Made by a program: the position numbers and the translations under genes
Source of the DNA: Schmidtea nova
Taxonomy: Eukaryota
Reading direction: 5' to 3'
DNA length: 64,000 nucleotides
NCBI GenBank assembly: GCA_044892505.1
Contig: CM097882.1
Span: forward strand, 271,374,001-271,438,000
Notes under the pieces: model-generated
Seen by the model: the letters and a program-made list of their open reading frames with translations, nothing else
Databases searched by the model: none
Told to the model about the DNA's origin: nothing
In this document: piece after piece, positions 37,701 through 56,624 of the stretch
How positions within the stretch are numbered: the stretch's first letter is position 1
Layout of the letters: each line of letters opens with the position of its first letter

Positions 37701-40304
37701 TCTTTTTATTTTTTTGTGTAAATATTTCAGAAAACAATTATTTATTAAAAAGATTTTAAAAGGCTGTGTAGAATGTTCACTTTTTTAAAATTATAGTTCT
37801 AATAATTATTATATTAGTAAATAGTTTTTTAAAAAGTCCCTCCTTCACTTTTTACATAAATATTAAGAAAAGTACATAACATTTCAAAATATACCAACAA
37901 CTTCAATAATGCCAGAATTCACATATAAAAGGTTAACGTACCAAAAGTAAATTTTCTATTATAAATCAAACTCACTTTGAAAGGCAGGACGATCCTGAAT
38001 GGTCTGTTAGACGGACTCAATCAGTATAAATACTGAACCGAAAATCAGTGAGATATACCGAATTTTGTGAACTAGTCTTCAGGTCGACTTTACTGATCTT
38101 GAATTATTAATTTGGAAACTTTCGTTAGAACGAACCTTTGAGGATCGATAATTAAATTTTATTTTGTTGTATTAAATGTTATATGCTCCCATGATATTAT
38201 TCAATAATATATTATTTCATAATGTTGATTTTATGACCAATTTAGTAAAGTGTCCTCTGTAGCTCACGCTGCGAGGTTTCTATCCATCTCCTAGGGGTTT
38301 CTTAGCTCCGCAAGATAATGAGTACATTTAACAACAATGCTAACATGCAACTTTGTAACAATAGATAGCTAAAATGATTTTTGATAGTTTCAGGAGGAGC
38401 ACTGTAAATAGGAGGTTTCGGTTAGAAATTCATAGATAATTTTTTAGACATCACTGCACTGGAATGCATTGGATAGTGCCAAGGGCCATAAGGTTCGTAG
38501 CTAAATGGAAATTTTATGAGGGCAGAGTATTGATGAAAGTCTAAATTCGTCTAGGAATCATGCAATACATTTCTTAGGTTGATAATAGGCTCATTCGCAT
38601 TTTATACACTATTGTCGTAAAAGGAATAATCGAATACCTGTTGGGGACCCAATTAATTATCATTAATACAAGTAAGGGAGGATTGACGAGTTGGACGGAG
38701 GCGCTTGGTTTATTTTTTACAGTAAGATAGTAAAAATTTCCTTTTGCAAATAAAACGAGAAACGTCGTCATTAGCGCAACTTTCGTAGCTCGAGGTAATG
38801 ACGAAAGGTGTGTAGGCCAGCCAGCGGTAAATGGAAAGGTCATGTGTACAATTTTCGGGATTTCAATTTAGGGAACCAAGGACGGGTAAAAAAGATTCGA
38901 CATATCTCCACCAGACAGTAGCGTATGTGGATGCAAGTCAGTCATTGAGGCGGACGTCGATAATTATTAAATTCACCTATATGGAATTTTACAGAAATGC
39001 AATAAACCTGGCTGGAAGAGAAACAAAATCAAAATACACGACGATATCAGCATTCATTCTCAATCTGGATGAGCACAAAGGACGAAATATGGCATCATGT
39101 GGGATTCATTGTCCAATTCCAATGGGATCCACGTATTCACCACAATACGCTAGTTTACTGATCATCATCAAGAACAAACTGCAGCGACTAATTTATTGGG
39201 GCTACATTTCCCAATCTGAAATCCATGCACTTGTGTTGGTGTTGCTTCGCCCTCCTTGGTCACTCCGAAAACTTCAGAAAGTGAAATTTGATAGATTATC
39301 AAAATCGATAATGCGACAAAAACCCATCCGACTTGGACTACAAATTCAACTGATTTTTGCGTGGAATTCCACGTTATGCTTCGACTAAAAAATAATCATG
39401 TTGAGTGTATCAAATATATGTCTTCTTTCTTTGTGCGAAGTTGTCCGATTTAGTGAATGAATATAGGAATTTTCAGATGATTGACTGTTACTAAGTAAAA
39501 TTTAGTTTTGTTTATAATTCTATTTAAATAAAGAGTTAACTTCATGTTGAATAGAAGTATCTATATCATTTCAGTGTGTCAAAATATCAGGGAACTCGTG
39601 ATGCAATTACAAAGGCTTGAAATACTCAGAAAGGTCATGAACGAGAGATCGAAAACTGTAAGGCTCAGGTAATCAAAATCAGTACCTGCGTCAAACTCTG
39701 TTTACGCTGGTTTAAATGAAAACAGATTAGGCTCACGGAAAGAGCCAAACGAGCCGTCACCGAAACACAATAAGAGCTCGAGGCAACATAAATAGAATTA
39801 CGAAAATTCCGTAACTCGGTCACTTGATCGTTGGTTGAGAAAGAGTTAAAGGCTTGCATCCGACCCATCACGTTGCAACAATACACCGATCAATTAAATT
39901 TGACGATTTTATTGAAAATTAAATTATTATTTTATGTCAAATTTAAAAAAAAATTTAAATAAATTTATTTTATCACAAAATGTTTACTCTAAAAATAAGA
40001 TTTTATTAATTTACTAAAATTTGATAAATTTTTATTTGGTGGGTTTTTTGATTGTCAATATAACTTTGACGTTGCCCTGGCTCCCATCAACAACTCAACA
40101 CATAAAACATTAGTCAAAACAATCTTGTTGCCCGTCACAATGTAACGTTGGTAGTGCAACAAATGGGTAGATGTATGCAAACAGTGATCGTCTATAAATC
40201 GAAAATATGATTGACCGAACATTACAGTGGGTATCAAAAATATTATATATATATATATATATATATATTATCATAATTATCTTTTTTCACCTTTGATCTT
40301 TTTT

Positions 40305-40485
40305 TATTATTATTATCAATAATTCTCATAATGACTATAGATCAAATTATTTTATAAACAATAACACAATATTTCGGCACAGCCTTTATCAAGTGTGTAC
40401 ACACTTGATAAAGGCTGTGCCGAAATATTGTGTTATTGTTTATAAAATAATTTGATCTATAGTCATTATGAGAATTATTGATAAT

Positions 40486-40492
<7 letters not shown>
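40305..40492. repeat. Perfect 188 bp palindrome (94 bp arms, no spacer) flanked by (TA)n
   Basis: Checked base by base, centre between 40398 and 40399 (GTGTGT|ACACAC). Confidence 0.95.
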
Positions 40493-40521
<29 letters not shown>

Positions 40522-41667: not shown

Positions 41668-42729
41668 TGTTAGGGTTCGAGATCAAGGGATCTCGGGTTT
41701 TTGTAATTAAATATTATAAGTAAATAAATAAATATAAATAGCAATTAAGAATTACTATAAATAAATAGATAAATAGTAATAGTAAATAAATAATTACTAT
41801 AAATAAATATAGATTAAATATAGTAATAATTAAATAGTATATAATAAATATAGTAATAAATAAATACATGATACATTTAAATAATAATAATAAGTTATAT
41901 ATAGTAATAATAAATTACTTTAAATAAAAATATAATAGATATTTTTAAAGGTCATGATTAGTATGACCACCACCGCTTTATTTTCAACGTAGTAGTAAAC
42001 CTACTATCGCTTAAAAAAATTATATATATACTGATTGCAAAATCAGTTGAGGAGAAAAATTAATTTTTGAGCAGAAGAATTACGAGAAGTTCAGAGCAGA
42101 ACATAAGTGTTTACAGAATAGTGAATTTGAGAAGTTTAGTTCAAAGTTAAATTTGCGTGGAGAGAATAATTTTACAGAATTTCATTTGTGATAATTTTCC
42201 GAAATTGGAATAATCTTTGAGCAAATTATTAGCTGGTAAATTTTCTAGTTTGTTTTAATTCTATAAATCGATCACGGGGAAATAGTTATATTACTATTTT
42301 TCCCCTTCAGTAAAGTCGTTAAATAATAAATTATTAGAAGGGAAATTATTAGGTCACAGTGACAACCATTTCTGGGTTGTCACTATCGCGATTAAACTAC
42401 CGGGAATCCCTCGTCTTTTGTCCTTTCATTTAGTCGGAGCTGTTGAGCCTTTTAGGTCCAGCTTTCGTTCTTAAACTCTGAGGACGGTTTGTATAACCGA
42501 TTTTCTAACTTTTGCTTTGCAGCTATTTTATTATATTGTACATTGTTATACATATTTCACAATAAATTTTATTAAAACGAATTAGTTTTGTATTCTTTAC
42601 ACCCAACCTAAAACATATATTTTATTTATAATTAATAAGCGGATTATCGTTTGGAGTCCGATAATCAAATTAAAGTTTTAAATATATATACTTTCTGTGT
42701 TCGTCGTAACCACTGATACGAACCGAACA
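41668..42729 (+). repeat. 5' LTR
   Basis: Direct repeat of 55563-56624, with five substitutions seen by eye. AT-rich low-complexity U3, TATA-like run at about 42021, TCAGTT initiator-like motif at about 42045 and AATAAA at about 42561. Confidence 0.97.
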
Positions 42730-42732
42730 TTT

Positions 42733-42750
42733 TGGTGAGCCCGGCGTGAT
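42733..42750 (+). promoter_or_regulatory. Primer-binding site, tRNA-Trp
   Basis: TGGTGAGCCCGGCGTGAT matches 16/18 positions of the standard Trp PBS TGGTGACCCCGACGTGAT, 3 nt after the LTR. Confidence 0.85.
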
Positions 42751-42821
42751 ACAATTATTATCAGTGGGCATATTGTCATATATACAAAATAGCTCCTAAA
42801 AAGTTAAAAGTTGTGGAGGAC

Positions 42822-45800
42822 ATGGCTGAAGAGAATAATGTTTTTGCTAGATATCCCGCTTTACCTGTCAAGGCATTTAGCGGAGATCCAGGAGAATTTC
42901 CGGAGTTTATGTCAGAGTATTATCAGATGGCAAAGGCCTATGGGTATCCAGATGCAATAATGATACAAAGACTGCCAATTTACCTTAAGGGTATGGCAAG
43001 GGAAAATTACAACGATATTATGGCGTTACCAGCAGCAGATAAACCAGGTACATGGGAAAAGATGAGAGAATCACTAACGGCTAGAATATTACCGGGAGAT
43101 TCAAGTAGAATTTTCCGACAACAATTTTATCACAGGAAGCAGAATGCAAATGAACATGTAGGAGAATTTTCCTATCAATTATTGTTATTAGCAGAAAGAG
43201 CATTTGGACTCAGAACTACCTGGAATGATGCAACTAAAGCTATGGTTAAAGACCAATTATTAGCTGGATTCACAAATGTTATGAGAAATGCATTGATTCT
43301 CCACACGGGAGATGATTTTTGGGAATTAACAAGAAAAGCTGTCGTAATCGAAAGCAGCTTAGAAAAGGCTACCTCATTTATGGTAAATAATGAGAAACCA
43401 GCAATTGAATGTTTTAACTGCCATAAGAAAGGGCACATATCAAAAGATTGCCACAGTAAGAAGGTAGCTGATACTCGTAGGGGTATTCAGTGTACTAAAT
43501 GTGGTATGAATAATCATAGTGTTGAGAACTGTAGAGTCACGAACTTGCAGTGTGATAAATGCAAACGCAGAGGGCATGTGGCTTCCGTTTGTAGAGTTAA
43601 AATTCTCCCCACGAATGGGAATTTTAATATAAAAAGGGATGATGTTAATTCATCAGGAAAGATAAAATGTCACGGATGTGGAAAATTCGGGCATATTCTG
43701 AGGTCGTGTCCTCAAAATCAGAGTAATAATACGAATAATAGGACTACCAATAGTGGTAATATCAGCAAGCCAAAAACTACGTTCATGGTCAATCACGATA
43801 AAGAATTGACGTATTTGCAACAACTGGAAATGGAAATCCAGGAGGAGAAAAATCGATTAGCACGGCTAATGGATCGAGATGATACAGTTTTTATGATTTC
43901 AGCTGAGAAAAATCATGCTCACACAGATGAGCGAGGAACAGTTTTGATGAATACAATTGAAGAAATAAATGAGACTCACACAGTTGGGCAAGAGACAGTT
44001 TTTATGATTTCAGCTGAGAAAAATCATGCTCATATGGATGGGCGAGGAACAGTTATAATGAATCCCATTGAGGAAAGCGATGATGCTCACACAGTTGGGC
44101 AAGGAACAGTTTTGATGATTTCAGCTGAGAAAAATCATGATGCTTACACAGACGAGCAAGGAAATAGTGAACTCATGGATTCCAGCAGCGAGAATCATGA
44201 GGTAATAGAATCAGAAACAAATTCTGATAATGATGACGAACCCAGTATGAGTACCATACTGAGCGAGTTCGACCAGGCTTTGTTCAAGGAAACAAAGGCC
44301 AAGAAAGGGTCAGATACCCTAGCAAAATGTTTAAAACTGGTGGATTCCAGATATGAGTATCAGCAGAGACTGACTCGAGAATTAGAGAAATTATCACAAG
44401 GTGATATCAAGAATAGTGAAATTGGAAAGATATTACAGTTAATATCTCAGGTCGAAGATGATCCAAGGTATCATAGCGACATACATAAAATCCTACGAAA
44501 GATAGGAACTGCAATGGAACATGAATGGGATCTTCAGGATTCGCATTTAAACATAAAACTTCCTCAGGAGCAGGAGTTTAACATCGACATGAATGTAAGA
44601 TGTCGAACAGATAAGTTGTCAGATACAGTGATGAAATTGAAACTTAATAGATATGATTTTTATCTATATGGAGAAAAGTTAGTAGTTGGGGAAACACTAC
44701 TACAAAATGGTGTATTACCAGGAAGGGTAACGAAACTCACAACGAAACTGACAGGAATATCGGTCCCAGTAGTGGATCAAGACAGTGTGTTTCTACTCAC
44801 ACAAATGGAAATTGCACAGTTGGAGGAAGTCCAACAAATAGAGCAACGTCTGAAGATAGAGTTGCAGAAATCTCCGAGGGATGCAGAAACAATCAAGGAA
44901 ATATTAGACTGGATGTTGGTATTGCGCATACCAGTAGAATCATTGGAGAATATAATTCCTATTCTACTACCTGTAGCAAAGGAAACTAGTTCATTTCAAA
45001 CGGAAATAAAAATGTTAATGAGGAAAAATGGAACAGCAATACGTCATCAAGCACATCGACAAGGCATGATAACTTTAGACCTTCGAATATCGGGAAAAGA
45101 ACCCATGACGAGATTATATCGCTGTTTTAGCAAAGTGATAACGTTGAGAAAAGATTTAATAGATACTGGGCAGACTACCGGTATATTCTTGATTATGATT
45201 CATGGAGGGCAAGTGGATGATGATGAATATTTAGTAGATGTGGGATGTCTACCATTTGAAACGACAACAGTAGCAATCATTCCCGTAGAGCCACCTGAAT
45301 CTCAATGGTCAGCATTACGGTTACCAGATGAAATGGTCACTGGTAATGTTGAAACACAACCATTTAATGTAGATATCGATGCCGATAATCACGGAGAAGA
45401 GGAAATCAGACTCAATAATGAGGAAACTAACGTGGGAGCTTCAAATTCTCGGGCGGTAGAAACTGTCAGGCCAGCATGGCAGATAAAGAAAGATAGGCGA
45501 GGAAGGCCTAGGAAAGATCAAATGAAACCTCCACCAACGGAGCAATTAAACCAAGAAACCATTAAACAGGTTCAGATGAAAACCCTGTCAGGAATAGCCA
45601 GGGATGTTGATATGAGAGACGAGGGTGTACATATACCAGAAAAATCTCTGACATGGAAGAGATTAAAACAGATCATAGGAATATTAAAGCCGGAATGGCA
45701 GATCACTCGGATTAAAGGAATTCAAGTGGATAAAGTGACACAGTCAATCGCGAAGACGATGAGGAGATTACCTAAAGGGGTACCGCAAAACGAGATACAG

Positions 45801-48356
45801 AATATGTTAGAGACACTCATACAAGATGGGTTATCTAAAGGAAAAATAGTGACAGCATTATCTATGTTGATTCAAGATGCCTTAGCCCGCGCAGGCAATG
45901 AGAAGAAACTTATTAATCGAGAAATAGACCAGATCACGGAGATAACGGAGCATTATCTCGGAACGTGGATGAGTGAAAATAACTTCTGGGAAGAGGAGAA
46001 ACATAAACTACGATATGAATTCGTGGAAAAGGCTATGAATAACAACCACCTCGGAAATGGAGGAATGGGGAATATGACGAATATGATATTAATGTTTTTA
46101 GTAATGATGGGAATAATGAAACAGACAAACACAATGACAGCGTTTGATTGCAGTGATCCAAAGTTAGCTCGGATATATTCGCTAGTAGATGCAATTGAGT
46201 GCAAAGAGGCATACCCAGAGAAAGTCCAAACAGGAGAAAAGGTCGAATACTATGTTTATCAAGAAAGTGAATTCTTCAGAACTAAGATAAGAGAATGTAG
46301 AGTCCAAAGAGCGACATTTGAATATTATTGTGGTTCACACAGCTATACAGCCTTTCTATCAGCCACTCTAATACCCAGACCTGTCAACATATTGCCAGAA
46401 GATTGTCTTGACGCCTTTCGAAAAGGTACTTTAAGAATCGATAACGAGGTAACCATCGCCGCGGAAGTAGGAAAAACATTGGGAGTAACCATTACACGAG
46501 GAGGATCAATCGGATCAGATGGTACCTGTTCGGGAAGAAAGAAAACTCGCGGATCGGAGTTGGTAAGTTTTGTCGTAGATATTGAGGACTATTCAATCGA
46601 ATTAAGAGAATACGAAGGGACGTTCGATGTATTATCAGGAAGATTAATGGCACACCCTCAGTGCCTTGCGAAATTTGGAAGCTGTAGAACAGGGGTCATT
46701 ACATTATTATACGATCAAATACTAGACCATTGCGAATTGTCATTACTAAAGAAAATTAATTTCCATAAGTTGAACGGGACAAAGTATCGAGATTTACCCA
46801 AAAGAGAAAGAATTTGGGATAAAGAAAAGACGTTGAAAAGGATCAACAAACAGCAAAAAGAGGATATTAGTGAGGAAATCACACCTCTAGTATTAGTATC
46901 AGAAGATAAGAAAGATGCAATCAGATTTGTCAGAAAAGATAAGAAGACAAAATGCGGAAAAGTGGTGTATGAGACCAACTATAAAGGATTATATTTGTCA
47001 AAAACATTTATCCAAAAGGCCAAGAATATTCACAGCCAGGATATCAAAATCACGAACTATATAAATAATAAAATAGATTATTTATATCATGATCTGCAAG
47101 GACAAATGCAGGAAATGTATCAGGAAGTAATACTTAATGATTGCAAACTAAATCGCGAAATAGTTCGAAATCGGTTAGCGATATCAATCGTGAATCCGGA
47201 TCTAGTGACACCTATGTTGCTAGAAGATGGAATGTTTGGCAGAATTATGGGGGAAGCTATATACAGCTATCAATGTCAACCCATAGAGGTACAATTAACA
47301 CGGTACAATGAATGTACTCTAGAATTACCAGTGTCATATCAAAACAAAATACGATTTGTAATGCCAGTAACGAGGAGACTTTTGGATGAAAAACAAAAGC
47401 CTCAACCTTCAATTTGCAATCCAGCAATATCACCGTTATACAAGGTAAATGATAGATGGATCTCATTACCTGACAGAAAACCATCTAATAGAAAGGTGGA
47501 AACATTGGAAGTCACGAAACTCGAGGAAAACATGGAATTTAAATCACTCGATGAATTATCACAAGGAGGAATTTACACTCCAGTAGACATTGAGGAGGCA
47601 AGACAGACGTTGCTATTTCCTCAAGTAAGAGAAAGAGGTATCACTGAAATCATAAGAACAATTTACCAAGCAAACGAAATGAGACCAGATTACAATTTAT
47701 TATTCGGTCCAGATCATTATAAAGAAGCAGCTAAAAATGTGATGATGAAAATATGGGGAAGGTTTACCAATTTTGGTATATTCGTGGCAGGCTGCTCAGG
47801 AATATATGCAATATTCGTAATTCTAAAGTTAATAATAACACAATTAATTTCCACATACAGCATATTCAAAATCGGTGGATGGTCTTGGAAGTTGATACTA
47901 GGATTGTGTCCTATGTGTGCGGAATTTGCATTGTTTAAACATCATCGTAAAGAAATAAAGACAATCAAACAGAGAAGCTTGGTTAAACACGAGATTATTG
48001 GAATCGAAATGGAGGGTAATACAAGTTATCGGGACGATAACAATTCGGAAGGAGGAGGTAATGGAGACTCTCTTAATACAGTTCAGAGGCAAAGTAGAAG
48101 TCGAAAAAGAAACTACAATAAAAAACCGAATCATCAATTAAGGAAAATGAAATATCGGGATTATCAACCACCTTACGAAGCGACAAAACAGATTTTCGAC
48201 AAAAGTATGATTTCAGAAGATGAATACGATAGTGCAGACCAGAAATTTGCAATCAATACAGCATCACCTAGATTGAAAAGAAGCCCAAGATATATGCAAT
48301 TGCCATATCTTAGAAGCTTACCAACAGCGCCAAAGGGGGAATCGCCAGAGTTTTAA
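42822..48356 (+). CDS. Gag-Env polyprotein, 1844 aa: capsid, 4 CCHC knuckles, 37-aa repeats, two Ubl-like domains, AT-hook, signal peptide, chuvirus-like glycoprotein, TM, basic tail
   Basis: Uninterrupted ORF. Knuckles at 43410-43709, RGRPRK at about 45498, hydrophobic signal at about 46086-46120, AFDC...YYCGSHS...CG...NKIDYLY...CKL...GEAIYSYQC...ELPV cysteine pattern and TM at about 47772-47870. Confidence 0.93.
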   Translation: MAEENNVFARYPALPVKAFSGDPGEFPEFMSEYYQMAKAYGYPDAIMIQRLPIYLKGMARENYNDIMALPAADKPGTWEKMRESLTARILPGDSSRIFRQQFYHRKQNANEHVGEFSYQLLLLAERAFGLRTTWNDATKAMVKDQLLAGFTNVMRNALILHTGDDFWELTRKAVVIESSLEKATSFMVNNEKPAIECFNCHKKGHISKDCHSKKVADTRRGIQCTKCGMNNHSVENCRVTNLQCDKCKRRGHVASVCRVKILPTNGNFNIKRDDVNSSGKIKCHGCGKFGHILRSCPQNQSNNTNNRTTNSGNISKPKTTFMVNHDKELTYLQQLEMEIQEEKNRLARLMDRDDTVFMISAEKNHAHTDERGTVLMNTIEEINETHTVGQETVFMISAEKNHAHMDGRGTVIMNPIEESDDAHTVGQGTVLMISAEKNHDAYTDEQGNSELMDSSSENHEVIESETNSDNDDEPSMSTILSEFDQALFKETKAKKGSDTLAKCLKLVDSRYEYQQRLTRELEKLSQGDIKNSEIGKILQLISQVEDDPRYHSDIHKILRKIGTAMEHEWDLQDSHLNIKLPQEQEFNIDMNVRCRTDKLSDTVMKLKLNRYDFYLYGEKLVVGETLLQNGVLPGRVTKLTTKLTGISVPVVDQDSVFLLTQMEIAQLEEVQQIEQRLKIELQKSPRDAETIKEILDWMLVLRIPVESLENIIPILLPVAKETSSFQTEIKMLMRKNGTAIRHQAHRQGMITLDLRISGKEPMTRLYRCFSKVITLRKDLIDTGQTTGIFLIMIHGGQVDDDEYLVDVGCLPFETTTVAIIPVEPPESQWSALRLPDEMVTGNVETQPFNVDIDADNHGEEEIRLNNEETNVGASNSRAVETVRPAWQIKKDRRGRPRKDQMKPPPTEQLNQETIKQVQMKTLSGIARDVDMRDEGVHIPEKSLTWKRLKQIIGILKPEWQITRIKGIQVDKVTQSIAKTMRRLPKGVPQNEIQNMLETLIQDGLSKGKIVTALSMLIQDALARAGNEKKLINREIDQITEITEHYLGTWMSENNFWEEEKHKLRYEFVEKAMNNNHLGNGGMGNMTNMILMFLVMMGIMKQTNTMTAFDCSDPKLARIYSLVDAIECKEAYPEKVQTGEKVEYYVYQESEFFRTKIRECRVQRATFEYYCGSHSYTAFLSATLIPRPVNILPEDCLDAFRKGTLRIDNEVTIAAEVGKTLGVTITRGGSIGSDGTCSGRKKTRGSELVSFVVDIEDYSIELREYEGTFDVLSGRLMAHPQCLAKFGSCRTGVITLLYDQILDHCELSLLKKINFHKLNGTKYRDLPKRERIWDKEKTLKRINKQQKEDISEEITPLVLVSEDKKDAIRFVRKDKKTKCGKVVYETNYKGLYLSKTFIQKAKNIHSQDIKITNYINNKIDYLYHDLQGQMQEMYQEVILNDCKLNREIVRNRLAISIVNPDLVTPMLLEDGMFGRIMGEAIYSYQCQPIEVQLTRYNECTLELPVSYQNKIRFVMPVTRRLLDEKQKPQPSICNPAISPLYKVNDRWISLPDRKPSNRKVETLEVTKLEENMEFKSLDELSQGGIYTPVDIEEARQTLLFPQVRERGITEIIRTIYQANEMRPDYNLLFGPDHYKEAAKNVMMKIWGRFTNFGIFVAGCSGIYAIFVILKLIITQLISTYSIFKIGGWSWKLILGLCPMCAEFALFKHHRKEIKTIKQRSLVKHEIIGIEMEGNTSYRDDNNSEGGGNGDSLNTVQRQSRSRKRNYNKKPNHQLRKMKYRDYQPPYEATKQIFDKSMISEDEYDSADQKFAINTASPRLKRSPRYMQLPYLRSLPTAPKGESPEF

Positions 48357-51300
48357 AAGACATCAGGAGAAGGCAAGTCAAGTTATGCTTTAACCATACC
48401 AAGAAACAAAATGTACATTTCTAAACATCAACAAATTCTCGACAAAGAGGCTCGAGAAACAGGTAAAAGCATATCATTATCGTTAGAAAATGAAGGGAAA
48501 CTGTATCCTATCGAGTCGTTAGAAGCAATAAAAGCAAAATTCAAGGAATATAATCCAAAATTGAGTGATACCGAACAAGATGAAGCAGAGAAATTCAGAG
48601 CAAATACCATCGGGATAACGCATGCTACTATTTTGATGGCAAATGGGGTGAACTTGGATAAGAAACCCATGATAAAGATAAAAATAAACTGACACACAGT
48701 TAATGCAGTGATAGATTCAGGAGCAGACGGCACCATCATAGAGGCAACACTATTAAATCAAAAAGAATTGGAATCAATGGAAACCTCTAGAGTTTCGCTA
48801 ACAGGTGCTACAGGCACATCATTGAATATTATCGGTACTCTAGTTTGCAACATCAAGCTATGTGACCAAGAATTTCGTCATGATATTATAGTCATGAGAA
48901 CTTGTCCAGTAGAATGTCTACTAGGAATGGATCTTTTAAGAAGATTAAAAGGAGTTGTGTTCGATTGTGCTACCGGATTGTTAGTTAGATCAATCGGTAA
49001 GAAAAGAAAAGTTTATAATGATGATACAGTTTTCATCGATCATACGATGATAATACCACCAAGAGCAGAAACAGTATGTTTCGTGTCCACTAGCGAACAG
49101 TGGGAAGGAGAAGTTGTATATTCGAACCAGATGAAAGGTTCTCAGCAAAATATAATCTACCAATTACGCATAGCGTTGGTAAAGTTGAAAATGGCAGAAT
49201 ACCAATTCGGGTAGCCAATTTAGATATAAAACCATTAAAATTGTACCCAGATACAAGAGTAGGGAGAGTATCAAAGTCGGATCAATTACCGATTGGGGGA
49301 TCTGTCCTGACAGTGAAGGCAGAGAATAGAGAACCAGACATCGAGTACTATGATGCGCCAACGGCAAATAGTAAAGCTCTTTCACGAAGAGAGAATATTC
49401 AAGTAAACATGTTGTTAAGAAAATATGATCAAGTATTCGCCAAGCACGAATATGATCTGGGAAAGACGAACTTGTTGGAACATGAAATTGTTCTTAACAA
49501 TACGAAACCAATAAAACTGAGACCGTATCGAATTCCGTTTAGCTTGGAAGAACCTGTCGATAAGCAGGTAAAACTGATGTTAAAACATAACATCATCAGG
49601 CATAGTAAATCACCATACCAGTCACCAATGATAGTGGTGGCAAAAAAGGATGGAACAGTACGACTATGCAACGACTATCGAATGGTAAACGAAGCAACTT
49701 GCAAGGATAGTCACCCATTACCATTATTGGATTACATTTACGGACGCATGAGAAATTCAAAATATTTCTCAGTGATGGATGCTCAGAAGGGATTTTACCA
49801 AATCAAGTTAAAAGAGGAGACAATACCAATTACGGCTTTTTCTACAAGCCTTGGACACTTCGAATATACAGTAATGCCATTTGGTCTTACAGGAGCGCCG
49901 GCAACGTTTCAAAGAGCCATGAATCTAATGTTAATGGATGTTCATCATGCAATGGTATACATAGATGACATCATTGTATTTTCTCCAGATTTGGAAAAAC
50001 ATTTAGAACATTTAGAGGACGTATTCAAAAGGTTAATTAATGCAAATCTTAAGGTAAAACCATCAAGATGTAAATGGGCCGAATCAGAAGTAGTCTATGT
50101 CGGTCACATTATCTCGAAGGATGGAGTAAAACCAGATCCAGCAAATGTTGAGAAAGCAAAGAATTTTCCAGAGTCAAAGACAGTCAAACATATTAAAGGG
50201 TTTTTGGGCTTAGTGGGATATTACAAGAAGTTCATCAGAAACGTTTCGGCCATAGCGTTTTCTCTGACACAATTAGAGGGAACAAATGTCAAATTTGTAT
50301 GGGGAAAAGAGCAACAGGGAGTATTTGATATGCTAAAAAGGATGCTCGTGGAACCTCCCATATTACGATTTCCAAATTTTTGAAAAAAAACTTTTGGTCA
50401 TGACAGACGCCAGCACTCGGGGTATTGATGCTGTGTTAGGTCAAAGAGATGACCTACGCGATGAATATGCCATAGTGTAAGCTAGCAGAGGATTGAAACC
50501 GCATGAAAAGAATTATGTAGTTATTGAATTAGAGGCATTTGCAATCGTTTATGCTATCAATCAATTTAGGACGTATTTATGGGGTCGAAAGATCATTGTG
50601 TATACGGATCATAGACCATTACAGTGGTTAACAAAGCATACTATGGATACATCAAAATTGGTTAGATGGGCATTGATCTTGCAGCCGTACGACATCGAAA
50701 TACATTACCGAAAAGGACATCAAAATGGGAATGCAGATGCATTTTCTCGAATGGACCAGGGTGATGAAGCAGAAGACGTTAAGGAAGGAAGATTAGAAGG
50801 AACAATCTTCGCACTTACAAGAGAAGCAAACAGACTCGCGGATTTAATGGCAGCACAACAATCGGATGAAGAGATAAACCAAATCAGACAGGCTTTAGAA
50901 GCAAAGTTCATACCGACGGAATTTAATAAATATTGGGAGAAAAATCGAGACAAATTTATCCTAGAAGAAGGATTAGTCAAATATGTGGATGTAAGGGATA
51001 ATGTCATAATGGTCCCTAAGAAATATCGGGAAGCCTTGATGTTACAATATCATGATGGAGCACTGGGAGGGCATTTATCTTCCAGGAAAACATTGTCAAG
51101 GTTGAAGCAGAAATATTTCTGGCCGACAATCAAACAAGACGTACAGGAATGGTGTCAGACATGTAAGATCTGTATCACCAGGAGAAATACGGGGAAGAAA
51201 CCTCATGTGCCAATGAAACCAATGCCAGTACCATCCACACCGATGGAAATGACGGCGATGGATATTTTAGGGCCATTCAAAGAATCAAATAGTGGTAACA

Positions 51301-53093
51301 AATACATATTGGTATTTTGCGATTACTTGACGAAATGGCCGGAGGCTTATCCGATACCGAATCACAAGGCAGATACGATAGCCAGGATTTTCGTAGAGCA
51401 AATTGTTTTTAGGTATGGAGTACCTACAAAACTACTAACAGATAGAGGAGCAGATTTCATGAGTAATCTGTTAAAAGGAATAAATGATTATTTCGACATT
51501 TTAAAACTGAATACCTCTCCATACCATCCACAAACAGACGGATTGGTAGAGAGATTTAACGGAACGCTCGCAAATATGCTAGCATCATACGTAAATTCAG
51601 GGCAAACGGATTGGGATATACATATTCCATCATGCCTATTCGCATACAGAAATGCTGTTCATGAGGGTACGGGACAAACGCCGTTCTATCTCATGTATTT
51701 AAGGCAAAGTAAAATGCCTATAGACTTGTTGTTTTTCCCAAAAGCAACGCAGTATCTAGACCAAGAAGATTACCTCATGGAAATGAGAGAAAGAATGCAA
51801 GAAGCATGGACAAAAGCAGGTCTTAGTATAAAATTCAGTCAGGAAGCGTCGAAAGATTATCATGATAAGAAAGCCAAAGGACATGGCATGTTAGTTGGAG
51901 ATAAGGTGATGTTAGAAAGCCATTATAATAAAAAGGGCTTATCACCTAAATTAATGAGAAACTTCAAAGGACCGTATGAGGTTTTGAGAACCACAGACAC
52001 GAATTTAATCTTGCAATTAGTAGCAAATAGAAAAGCTGAACCAATAATGGTACATGCTAACAGATGCAAGAAAGTTGCGGTCACGGAGAAAGATCCGATT
52101 AAGAAAAAGGAGGATAAAGGGTCAGAACCAGTCTCAGACAGATATCCATTACGATCAAGAAGCGTGCCAAAATCAGTTACGTTTTTGGTAATAATAAGTT
52201 GCCTTATATCCTGTGTAAAGACATTTGTTCCAACAGCGGTACAAATTCAAGATCTCGCATTTAGAAGATCTTTCCAGGAATTTAGAATAATATCATTAGC
52301 TGAAAATGATACCAAATTCAAGTTCTCGTTTTGCGAACGACGTTGTTTCCATTTTACATTGGATTCAAACACAAGAGTGAAAGTCATAAAGGACTTACGA
52401 GCAGAAAAGGAATATTTATTAGATATACTTGTTCAACATTTTATGTTCGGACGATGGTCAGATTTTTCAAAGTCACAATGGAAGCTGAAGACAGCAGATT
52501 TCAAAAGGAAAGTTAGAATAAATATCCAACAAGGTATGATTACCTTCAGCCAACCAAAACAAGGAGTGGATAGAGTAAAGATAGAAATCCATTCCGACAA
52601 GGAAATAGTACAAGAATTGTGGCTAAATGAAGATATTGAGAAACAAAATCTCAAGTGGAACAGCTCAGTGGAGTGGGAAGCTCATATCACTTATATGAAT
52701 AATAAACAAAAGCCCGGAGTCGATGAATGGAATGAGGTATTTTATGAAGTAATCTCTTTGAAATTACCACAATCATCGACGACAACGAAATCGGTTACAT
52801 CAATTATACGGAAAGAAAGTTACGTCATTCATCCTGCAATATGGCAGAGATTGAAAGGATTGAAAATGGTAAAACCAACAGTATCAACAGAAAGCTATAT
52901 TAAAAGTTGTCAGTGTGAAATTAACGAAGTAAACCCCATTACTCACTTGGGAAAATTACCCGTTGGGGTATGGATTATTACGTCAGCAGTATTATCTATG
53001 ATCACTACATTAATAGCAATGGGGGTTTGGATGAAATTATTCTTCAGTCAGGCTATTGAGTCGGTTGATGGGATTATGATGACGAGATTATGA
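48357..53093 (+). pseudogene. pol (PR, dUTPase-like linker, RT, RNase H, integrase) plus in-frame C-terminal membrane protein; four lesions
   Basis: IDSGADGT, RLCNDYR, YIDD, TDAS, ELEAFAIV, YTDH, HHCC, DILGP/TDRG/VERFN and GPYEV. Lesions: TGA 48690, -1 nt near 49108, +1 nt near 50381, TAA 50478. Confidence 0.93.
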
Positions 53094-53207
53094 CAATTAC
53101 AGATAAAATCACATATTTGTATTTATATATATATTAAAATCTATAATCTTGTTGAGCTCCGAGTAGCATTAACTTACAGCATAAGTAGATCCCGTAAATC
53201 GAGATTT

Positions 53208-55268
53208 ATGCATTTCTTTTTAGCCAATATTGGCATATCAGTATATCTGATATTAACGTTAATTATTTTTCTTTCAGATATGAAGCATCAAGTGTCACAA
53301 TACAAGCAGCGTTACAGCACTATCGATGTGCAAACAATACAGAAGGAAAAACTGATTTATCGAAACATCGAAAAAGCGATATCCGCAGAAGCACGGAAAG
53401 GTCGTCGCTATTGGTATTACGGGCACTGCACCGGCATCCCGAACAATTTTAAGTTTCTTGGATCACCTAAGAGACAAATGTGCATAGTCACAATTACCAG
53501 CCGTGAGAACACCCGGTTGACTGAACACATGGCGGAATTTAACAGATCAACATTTACTCACCATCTCCTGATTCACGCGATCAATAAACCCTTTACAATC
53601 TTCATGGCAGGAGCCACAGGACCTATCCTACTTCAACCAGAATCAACTCTAGAAATTAGTAACGGAGATGGCAGAGAAAAGAATATCTCCATCCAATGTG
53701 AAGGATATAATACCATTGTGGTATTAGAGATTTTGGAACCCAGCAAGGCAGTGCAATCATTGTGGAAAAATGAACCTGCCTGGACCTATAATGTGAATGA
53801 GAACGATCTCAAATCATTCAAATCCTTTGTTCGGATGAATCTGCACCCCAATCAAGAAGATAGGTTGTCAATATTTATTGCAGCGCATTACGCAACTTTG
53901 CGAGATTATTTAAAGCCAGCTTTGGTGGCTGTTTCGATAGCAAACTACTGTGGTGATTTAATACTAAACACGGTGGTTACACCCAGAAACCAGGTCAAAC
54001 ATTACCAATCGCACGCGCATGGTATGACCGAAAAAGAAATCATCGGACAATTTGACGGAGAGGATTGCGCAGACCGTATTAGGAAATTATGTGATGGGAA
54101 AATCCTAATAGGTCTCCAAGTCAACGATTTCTTGGAAGCAGTCCAGTTACACCCTCAACGAGTTTTGGGAATTAGAGAACTAGGAGCAGCAAAATGCCTG
54201 GAAGCGAGAGAACTAAAGAAATGTAACGGACATTATCGACTCGCGTATTTATCAAAGTCAATTCTCGAAAAGGAAGAACTAAACCGTTCAGATCTGAAAA
54301 CGGAAAATGACGTGGAAACGACACGTAATATTTACCTTAAACTGAGAGAAGTTTGGGTAGATGACATCACCCCAGGTAATCGTAGTGGGACGATTACATC
54401 AGAAGTCAAAATGGTTCATACAATACAGCCACAAGAAACGAGTAAAAGGAAAGCTATTGAGAGCTTACCCCAGGAACAGCCATTATCAACCAAATTGCAA
54501 AAGATAGTTGAGGAAGAATCACTATCCCCTCCAGCTATATCCTTAGCTGATGAAGACGATTACGCCACCTGCGAAAGCGAGGGTGAGGAACAAACAGAGA
54601 TGCGTTTAACTTTACACGGAGACAGCCGTACAAAGATCGTGCCAGAAAATCCACCAAAGAAAGAGAACAAGCTCTTGGAAAAAGTTACTAAGACTTTTCA
54701 AAAATTGACTTCAGTAGAAAAGTCATTCCCAAAGAAAAGTCAAGAACCTGTTGTAAGGTTACAAGATCTAAAGATCAAGAAGAAAGTACCAAATCTCCTC
54801 TCGACGGAAGACAAAGATTTAATCGAAACAGCATTCGTTCCACCCGATATGGAACAGATTCCTGAGGTTAAGGGCGAACCTATCATTATAAGAGAAGGGG
54901 ATTTCGTTGGAACGGGAAACTCAGCAAAGATACCCCAGGATTTGGACAATGAAGACCCTAGTTTTTGGCAGCGACCAGAGAGAAATTGGGTACCTCGGAT
55001 AAAAGAATACGACGGGAAACCGGTACACCAATCATCAGTTTCAAACTTCCCTTACTATGGCGTATTGGAGGCCAACGGAAAATCATACGTGATTTCTTCT
55101 TTGGTATATAAGGAAGTTGAAACACGTGAAACATTGGTGGTCAGCTATAGACCAGATATAGTGGAAGATCGCATCAGGAACGAACAAGCGCATATTCGCA
55201 AGAGAGCAGCTCAAAACCTATTCGCGAAGGATAACAAGCATTGCTGCTACGTTCAATCCAAGGTCTAG
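53208..55268 (+). CDS. Accessory ORF3 with a degenerate DEDDh (REXO4/ISG20-like) exonuclease domain at about 53859-54356
   Basis: LVAVSIANYCGDLILNTVVTPRNQVKHYQSHAHGMTEKEI...KILIGLQVNDF...ENDVETTRNIY aligns by eye with REX4 ARVSIVN.G....D..VKP...V.DYRT.VSGI...ILVGH.L..D...EDA.....LY. Possible alternative start at ATG 53280 after TTTCAG. Confidence 0.75.
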   Translation: MHFFLANIGISVYLILTLIIFLSDMKHQVSQYKQRYSTIDVQTIQKEKLIYRNIEKAISAEARKGRRYWYYGHCTGIPNNFKFLGSPKRQMCIVTITSRENTRLTEHMAEFNRSTFTHHLLIHAINKPFTIFMAGATGPILLQPESTLEISNGDGREKNISIQCEGYNTIVVLEILEPSKAVQSLWKNEPAWTYNVNENDLKSFKSFVRMNLHPNQEDRLSIFIAAHYATLRDYLKPALVAVSIANYCGDLILNTVVTPRNQVKHYQSHAHGMTEKEIIGQFDGEDCADRIRKLCDGKILIGLQVNDFLEAVQLHPQRVLGIRELGAAKCLEARELKKCNGHYRLAYLSKSILEKEELNRSDLKTENDVETTRNIYLKLREVWVDDITPGNRSGTITSEVKMVHTIQPQETSKRKAIESLPQEQPLSTKLQKIVEEESLSPPAISLADEDDYATCESEGEEQTEMRLTLHGDSRTKIVPENPPKKENKLLEKVTKTFQKLTSVEKSFPKKSQEPVVRLQDLKIKKKVPNLLSTEDKDLIETAFVPPDMEQIPEVKGEPIIIREGDFVGTGNSAKIPQDLDNEDPSFWQRPERNWVPRIKEYDGKPVHQSSVSNFPYYGVLEANGKSYVISSLVYKEVETRETLVVSYRPDIVEDRIRNEQAHIRKRAAQNLFAKDNKHCCYVQSKV

Positions 55269-55550
55269 CAATAAGCTATGACAACTATCAATCAAACAAT
55301 TAGCATTTCGGCTATGTGATCAACAATCCAACTCTTACAGACAGTTATTATTTGATATCGATTGTGATCAACATTACTTATGTATTATGCGTTTTATGAG
55401 ACTCATTTGTTTTATGTGATTTATTTTAATTTTTATTGACCAGGTGCAGTCAATGTATATATATGCATGTGTTGTTATTTTATTTTTTATTTTATGGCTG
55501 CGTAACCTTCTTGTCTTTTCCGCTTTAATTTTCGGGACGAAAATCTTGTT

Positions 55551-55560
55551 AGGGGGAAGA
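55551..55560 (+). promoter_or_regulatory. Polypurine tract
   Basis: AGGGGGAAGA, 2 nt before the 3' LTR. Confidence 0.88.
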
Positions 55561-55562
55561 CA

Positions 55563-56624
55563 TGTTAGGGTTCGAGATCAAGGGATCTCGGGTTTTTGTA
55601 ATTAAATATTATAAGTAAATAAATAAATATAAATAGCAATTAAGAATTACTATAAATAAATAGATAAATAGTAATAGTAAATAAATAATTACTATAAATA
55701 AATATAGATTAAATATAGTAATAATTAAATAGTATATAATAAATATAGTAATAAATAAATACATGATAAATTTAAATAATAATAATAAGTTATATATAGT
55801 AATAATAAATTACTTTAAATAAAAATATAATAGATATTTTTAAAGGTCATGATTAGTATGACCATCACCGCTTTATTTTCAACGTAGTAGTAAACCTACT
55901 ATCGCTTAAAAAAATTATATATATACTGATTGCAAAATCAGTTGAGGAGAAAAATTAATTTTTGAGCAGAAGAATTACGAGAAGTTCAGAGCAGAACATA
56001 AGTGTTTACAGAATAGTGAATTTGAGAAGTTTAGTTCAAAGTTAAATTTGCGTGGAGAGAATAATTTTACAGAATTTCATTTGTGATAATTTTCCGAAAT
56101 TGGAATAATCTTTGAGCAAATTATTAGCTGGTAAATTTTCTAGTTTGTTTTAATTCTATAAATCGATCACGGGGAAATAGTTATATTACTATTTTTCCCC
56201 TTCAGTAAAGTCGTTAAATAATAAATTATTAGAAGGGAAATTATTAGGTCACAGTGACAACCATTTCTGGGTTGTCACTATCGCGATTAAACTACTGGGA
56301 ATCCCTCGTCTTTTGTCCTTTCATTTAGTCGGAGCTGTTGAGCCTTTTAGGTCCAGCTTTCGTTCTTAAACTCTGAGGACGGTTTGTATAACCGATTTTC
56401 TAACTTTTGCTTTGCAGCTATTTTATTATATTGTACATTGTTATACATATTTCACAATAAATTTTATTAAAACGAATTAGTTTTGTATTCTTTACACCCA
56501 ACCTAAAACATATATTTTATTTATAATTAATAAGCGGATTATCGTTTGGAGTCCGATAATCAAATTAAAGTTTTAAATATATATACTTTCTGTGTTCGTC
56601 GTAACCACTGATACGAATTGAACA
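55563..56624 (+). repeat. 3' LTR
   Basis: Direct repeat of 41668-42729, followed by TSD CTTA. Confidence 0.97.

Follow-up and report, generated by a model that had tools for sequence, protein, structure and literature searches.

The integrase of a planarian errantivirus is followed, in the same frame, by a predicted second membrane protein whose ectodomain most likely consists of two fibronectin type III (FN3) domains, the family that a first-pass annotation of the sequence had been unable to name. The element lies in a stretch of 64,000 nucleotides from Schmidtea nova (assembly GCA_044892505.1, contig CM097882.1, positions 271,374,001 to 271,438,000), hereafter the window, to which all coordinates refer; the features described below are on the plus strand. 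We regard it as probable that the segment behind integrase, at 52164-53093, is a real FN3-like membrane protein, and the sequences of related elements indicate that its succession of signal, ectodomain and transmembrane (TM) helix is a trait of the whole clade. What appears to be new, in the literature searched, is this second membrane protein with its probable FN3-like fold; the GAG-ENV-POL gB-type element class that harbours it is already known.

The whole element spans 41668-56624 and is a young, LTR-bounded Ty3/gypsy errantivirus with a gB-type (class III) Env. Its 5' LTR (41668..42729, TG...CA) is preceded by the target-site duplication CTTA, its 3' LTR (55563..56624) has a polypurine tract before it and CTTA after it, and the two LTRs align without gaps with 6 mismatches in 1,066 aligned nt. 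A primer-binding-site-like stretch starting TGG (42733..42749), overlapped by a splice-donor-like site at 42735, leads into a region at 42822..46136 comprising the capsid-like part of Gag with its CCHC knuckles (zf-CCHC, 7.8e-5; Retrotrans_gag weak, 0.12), an accessory region and the Env signal peptide. The Env ectodomain and TM follow at 46137..47825 (PF24664, E 6e-90; TM from hydropathy), and protease, RT, RNase H and integrase at 48693..52163, as assigned from Pfam domains and reading frames. Of the features of the class, the LTRs, target-site duplication, primer-binding-like site and polypurine tract, the PR-RT-RH-IN order and the class III Env between gag and pol are present. In the window copy, pol carries two stops (48354-56 and 48690-92) and two frame breaks (about 49100-49200 and 50380-50480).

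Several smaller observations concern the same stretch. Within the Gag region, a 111-nt repeat of ~2.5 copies (43881-44159) encodes a similar hydrophobic motif in each copy, which might be a candidate protease site. Between Gag and Env, at about 44590-45300, there are stretches that by eye look like ubiquitin/SUMO and have no Pfam match, and ubiquitin/SUMO-like domains occur between Gag and Env in the relatives P0010 and P0011. Outside the element, perfectly abutting inverted repeats at 40296-40501 (103-nt arms, 96%) and 5002-5120 (56-nt arms, 95%) have sequence in common with each other and are possibly small foldback elements.

One frame without stops, 50481-53093, takes in RNase H and integrase and continues into the segment, in line with the in-frame fusion behind integrase that the first-pass annotation had described. 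Integrase ends in RYPLRSR (52140..52160), and the junction reads RYPLRSR-SVPK-SVTFLVIISCLISCVKT; the annotation was right about this end and about the signal-like start, and wrong to place them next to each other, having omitted the four residues SVPK. The predicted internal signal peptide occupies 52164..52223, with its h-region at 52176-52214 and a putative cleavage site. It is followed by FN3-like domain 1 (52224..52496), which carries an NDT sequon (52305) and GRWSDFS near its end, FN3-like domain 2 (52497..52775) with an NSS sequon (52659), a Ser/Thr-enriched stalk (52776..52961, 23% S+T) that includes a CxC pair, and a predicted TM helix with a 19-aa tail and the stop (52962..53093). By hydropathy, the hydrophobic windows of the segment are the signal and VGVWIITSAVLSMITTLIAMGVWM, and the signal and TM calls rest on hydropathy and layout. 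The predicted order is therefore signal, a beta ectodomain of ~185 aa, stalk, TM and short tail; the ectodomain with its stalk amounts to ~247 aa with 4 Cys, 2 more Cys lying in the signal, in close agreement with the earlier description of about 245 aa with both sequons, several Cys, a TM and a short tail. Hydropathy, layout and sequons fit a predicted type I membrane glycoprotein.

The signal contains no in-frame Met, and a simple, crude scan found no splice acceptor-like site in front of it, which together suggest that the module is probably synthesised as the C-terminal part of a polyprotein. The possibility that the segment has a spliced mRNA of its own was weighed and rejected, the sole acceptor-like site above threshold in 51000-53400 being, in this crude scan, the one at 53277; the pyrimidine tract of this acceptor is the better explanation for the hydrophobic stretch that opens the frame at 53094. 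Among 131 protein matches in the genome, counted by hand (128 of 306 candidates scored), 25 hold the segment within a stop-free frame of 3,406-3,449 aa, which corresponds to 42750-53093 in the window and indicates that the family encodes a single polyprotein from Gag to the segment's TM. The absence of a Met and of an acceptor-like site, and a layout shared by 14 of 14 related polyproteins, described below, support the proposal that an internal signal leads into a second type I membrane protein.

Structure comparison of the segment points to FN3. In an alignment-free, single-sequence model, domain 2 matched fibronectin best (Z 7.9, rmsd 1.9, 80 residues aligned), and about 38 of the 50 matches listed were of FN3 type as judged by their titles. 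In an alignment-based model, the best match of domain 1 was an integrin beta4 FN3 domain (Z 7.8, rmsd 3.1, 88 aligned), with C2 and other Ig-like folds within about 1 Z of FN3; a Z under 8 can reflect a common arrangement. The models are weak (mean pLDDT 45 and 53) and each resolves a single domain, and alignments A2-A5 placed domain 2 differently, A5 being chosen by eye. Foldseek, which the annotation had proposed together with structure prediction, returned FN3-type proteins for the alignment-based model in 40 of the 40 matches listed, five of them at E<=0.001, with low TM-scores of 0.23-0.32. In an atlas comparison, domain 1 reached 0.93 to fn3 clusters with 158 shared features, and the whole protein 0.87-0.91, below the atlas recognition mark. 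Fusogen folds of class I, II or III were absent from the matches listed in the PDB and viral fold-library comparisons. Cytokine-receptor FN3 domains are among the structural look-alikes. Class I cytokine receptors are marked by a WSxWS motif, paired N-terminal Cys and a Box1 tail; of these the segment offers GRWSDFS only, in the first domain, and its 19-aa tail has no proline-rich box, and membership of that class was rejected.

Pfam found no family for the window segment at E<=1 or E<=10, and because its domains have no PF00041 match they are filed as FN3-like and not as members of PF00041. Word-seeded protein searches with the segment gave no match at E<=0.1, at near or longer lengths; the PDB sequence search gave chance colicin matches only, the PDB profile search no match below E 0.17 (two FN3 chains came at E 1.2), and the viral fold library no match at E<=0.001. 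The ectodomains of the relatives are repeats of about 90 residues. Profiles built with one family left out scored its repeats above all shuffles in five of nine tests (P0002, P0006, P0010, P0011 and family D), family E being marginal and family B, P0008 and P0012 not recovered, and 59 of 973 shuffles scored as high as the window domains when compared with the repeat profile of the relatives. Compared with 42 host FN3 domains, a family marked by the loop signature L-x-P-x-T-x-Y, the relatives' profile scored 23.2 over 20 columns vs 12.5 or less in 60 shuffles (probability 32%), and the window's two domains alone did not rise above shuffles. A six-sequence clade profile that includes the window retrieved 17 matches among 1.84 billion proteins, namely 12 Pfam fn3 proteins and 5 element pieces, so that besides elements it retrieves FN3 proteins exclusively (12/12). 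In a Pfam fn3 search of the genome, none of the matches listed fell within a frame of 3,400 aa, and no gene of the host emerged as the donor of the module. Each of these lines is moderate; taken together they are best read, with good confidence, as two FN3-like domains.

The first-pass annotation held that its proposal would fail if intact copies lacked the segment or did not keep it open. It was open in 29 of the 30 best DNA copies, window included, and the upstream frame was open across all 621 codons covered in 28 of these 30. Changes of the segment common to at least two copies comprised 11 non-synonymous vs 48 synonymous (ratio 0.06), and singleton changes 34 non-synonymous to 16 synonymous (ratio 0.54); the corresponding shared counts were 2 vs 38 for integrase, 2 vs 18 for domain 1 and 4 vs 14 for domain 2, and the signal and TM-tail, where sites are few, had no shared non-synonymous change. 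The segment is under strong purifying selection. Between the sister families B and C, ectodomain dN is 0.24, with a near-saturated dS of about 2.4, as against a dN of 0.09 for Env and 0.04-0.05 for RT and IN; the ectodomain is thus constrained, yet changes faster than Env. Host-facing proteins often evolve fast.

Family searches in the same genome uncovered four more env-bearing families, B to E, and a database search with Env yielded 11 polyproteins, eight of which reach integrase; P0003, P0004 and P0009 end before it and were left out of the module counts. In all 13 of these polyproteins (window, B-E and the 8 from the database), integrase is followed by a hydrophobic signal, an ectodomain of 126-399 residues and a TM, the weakest TM being that of E. 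P0061 is a fourteenth polyprotein with this layout by inspection. In a tree that holds no published element, these 14 group as a single clade (97/97), apart from three env-less families whose branches are long. In env-less gypsy loci, 0 of 14 had an Env match or a hydrophobic segment in their long frames; these controls are only remotely related (26-32% IN identity, from about 3 families), and the co-occurrence with Env is therefore confounded with ancestry. The number of repeats varies among relatives from 1 to about 4.

The module also varies in place and content. In P0058, a signal-FN3-like-TM module sits between ankyrin repeats and protease and not behind integrase, which suggests that fusion to integrase is not what matters and that the module behaves as a movable cassette within the polyprotein. 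In P0012 the cassette is a swapped one: the post-integrase signal and TM enclose a short, Cys-rich ectodomain that has no FN3-like repeat. Family E has an env-less derivative, and the module is retained at all seven of its loci (L079, L081, L083, L085, L086, L088 and L094, at about 4200-9400); this derivative is without env and most of pol, and has a different gag-like ORF followed by E's integrase tail, the membrane module, here with a Met just before the signal peptide, and the exonuclease ORF. Near this derivative, L094:534-2486 holds a 650-aa open frame with MIF4G (1e-19) and a weak MA3, which is eIF4G-like. Between integrase and the signal, an extra protease domain or protease motif is found in five of the nine database relatives with integrase; the polyproteins P0002, P0005, P0006, P0007 and P0008 hold as many as three aspartic protease domains, including one between integrase and the second signal.

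Downstream of the segment, ORF3 (53280..55268) encodes an ISG20/DEDDh-type exonuclease-like protein (ISG20L2, E 2e-5) and follows the acceptor-like site ending at 53277, to which it is likely spliced for expression. It is under purifying selection (6 vs 43 shared changes) and 30% identical to ORF3 of family B. Its first catalytic motif reads IAAHY as against IDAEY in family B, and it is therefore probably a catalytically altered exonuclease. No closer sister family was found for ORF3 among 108 scored of 2,019 candidates. The ORF3 of family D (L075:6283-8979, 898 aa) has no Pfam match.

The combination of FN3 domains with a Ser/Thr-rich stalk is characteristic of receptors and adhesion proteins. 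The module is the conserved last part of the element's single gag-env-pol polyprotein, which we propose to be threaded through the membrane, with Gag predicted in the cytosol, then a signal, Env in the lumen, a TM, PR-RT-RH-IN in the cytosol, the second signal, the FN3 pair and stalk in the lumen, and the final TM. Signal peptidase would cut the module free, and the element's own protease would release integrase from the leftover signal anchor. The two glycoproteins would then be made one-to-one and reach the budding membrane, where Env would carry out fusion and the FN3 pair may attach to a protein of the host surface or matrix. Near the integrase end, 12 of the 14 related polyproteins have a Y-x-[LI]-R motif. 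This motif, RYPLRSR in the window, shows a resemblance, and no more, to the chromatin-binding peptide YNLRPR that in foamy viruses binds the nucleosome, as described in PMC12125541; given this likeness, integrase would need to be released from the leftover anchor.

We put the chances that the module works as an adhesion protein on the particle, beside the gB-type Env, at about even. This role is favoured because an FN3 pair on a stalk is an adhesion-type architecture, because synthesis would be one-to-one with Env, and because the ectodomain changes faster than Env, and we rank it above a decoy on the host cell and, after that, an aid to assembly. Against it stand the different ectodomain of P0012 and the retention of the module by the env-less derivative of E. 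A complex prediction for the Env ectodomain and the FN3 pair, in which alignments were not used, scored 0.00 and weighs neither for nor against this role.

It is less probable, though worth weighing, that the FN3 pair would remain on the surface of the cell that makes it, and there either draw off a host ligand or receptor as a decoy or block re-entry of related particles. The cytokine-receptor look-alikes, the likeness of GRWSDFS to WSxWS, the ISG20-like ORF and the persistence of the module in the env-less derivative all suit such a role, as does the host-tinkering cargo described for planarian Burro elements (PMC6431247). By eye, the alignment has no WSxWS-like motif in the relatives' repeats, and the inconstant repeat number and a tail without a recognisable signalling domain further argue against it, while one-to-one synthesis with Env suits a particle protein equally well. 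Rather unlikely, and a step below the decoy, is an aid to assembly, in which the second signal and TM would anchor Pol at the budding membrane, or the module would chaperone Env in the ER, with FN3 as a spacer. The signal and TM are indeed kept in 14 of 14, which the FN3-like repeat is not (P0012), and at their few sites they carry no shared non-synonymous change; however, the Env TM would already tether Pol, the ectodomain is itself strongly constrained, and the P0058 module precedes the protease. The earlier suggestion of a relic of an older env is very improbable: the position just 3' of integrase, where an env usually sits, and the signal-ectodomain-TM layout agree with it, but the prediction is all-beta and tandem FN3-like with no fusogen among the matches listed in the PDB or viral libraries, about 185 residues are folded, and purifying selection is strong. 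The view that the segment is a neutral passenger, or arose when the integrase stop was read through by chance, has in its favour only the lack of a direct sequence homologue of the window segment; it is refuted by the selection data, together with the open copies and the same layout across the clade.

The window element can be set beside known ones. GAG-ENV-POL gB-type elements have been described in nematodes, bryozoans and flatworms, with Smed_errantivirus_1-6 as the HSV/gB-type members in Platyhelminthes (Chary and Hayashi, PMC13524379), and the window element is like these six in its Ty3/gypsy Pol, its gB-type Env between gag and pol and its many near-identical copies. By eye, the window Env is most like Smed_errantivirus_4, which points to a flatworm as host and to these published elements, and the Env of family B is like Smed_errantivirus_1 (PMC13524379 supplement). 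The C-terminal addition to integrase discussed there is a chromodomain, in contrast to the membrane module here, and the main text and 7 supplements of PMC13524379 have no mention of fibronectin, FN3 or exonuclease. Burro/GYPSM1, giant planarian gypsy elements with one large polyprotein, env in frame between gag and pol, and accessory domains (PMC6431247), share these traits with the window element, but are much larger and carry BIR, MATH, BCL2, ankyrin and SUMO-like cargo; the available text of that review mentions neither fibronectin nor FN3. Bdelloid LTR retrotransposons have extra ORF3s, including a DEDD-type exonuclease as a 3' ORF, as in the window element, and small TM-bearing ORFs (PMC5408684). 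Their extra ORFs are separate and occur in elements with F-type or no env, and fibronectin was not found in the available text of PMC5408684. According to PMC13524379, it is not yet understood by what means the majority of errantivirus Env proteins pass their elements on.

In the openly accessible literature searched, we found no description of an FN3 module behind a gypsy integrase. The module accounts for an overlooked tail of 300-400 aa on the 'Pol' of this clade, and a surface protein of this FN3-like, fast-changing kind beside Env offers a specific candidate determinant of cell tropism in gB-type elements. Viral entry is divided between two components in herpesviruses, with gB and separate binding proteins, and in paramyxoviruses, with F and G/H; in alpha- and flaviviruses, polyproteins are processed by signal peptidase and internal signals alternate their topology. 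Somewhat short of even odds, we tentatively propose that the whole clade uses two-component entry, in which a class III fusogen is paired with a dedicated attachment protein built of FN3 repeats that were captured, the two being released from a single polyprotein that threads through the membrane with the enzymes between them. The parallel of a fusogen beside a second surface protein is one of analogy only, and, unlike in the two-component viruses, the enzymes of the window element sit between its two membrane proteins. If this proposal is true, the division of labour between a binding and a fusion protein that herpes- and paramyxoviruses show is open to retroelements too.
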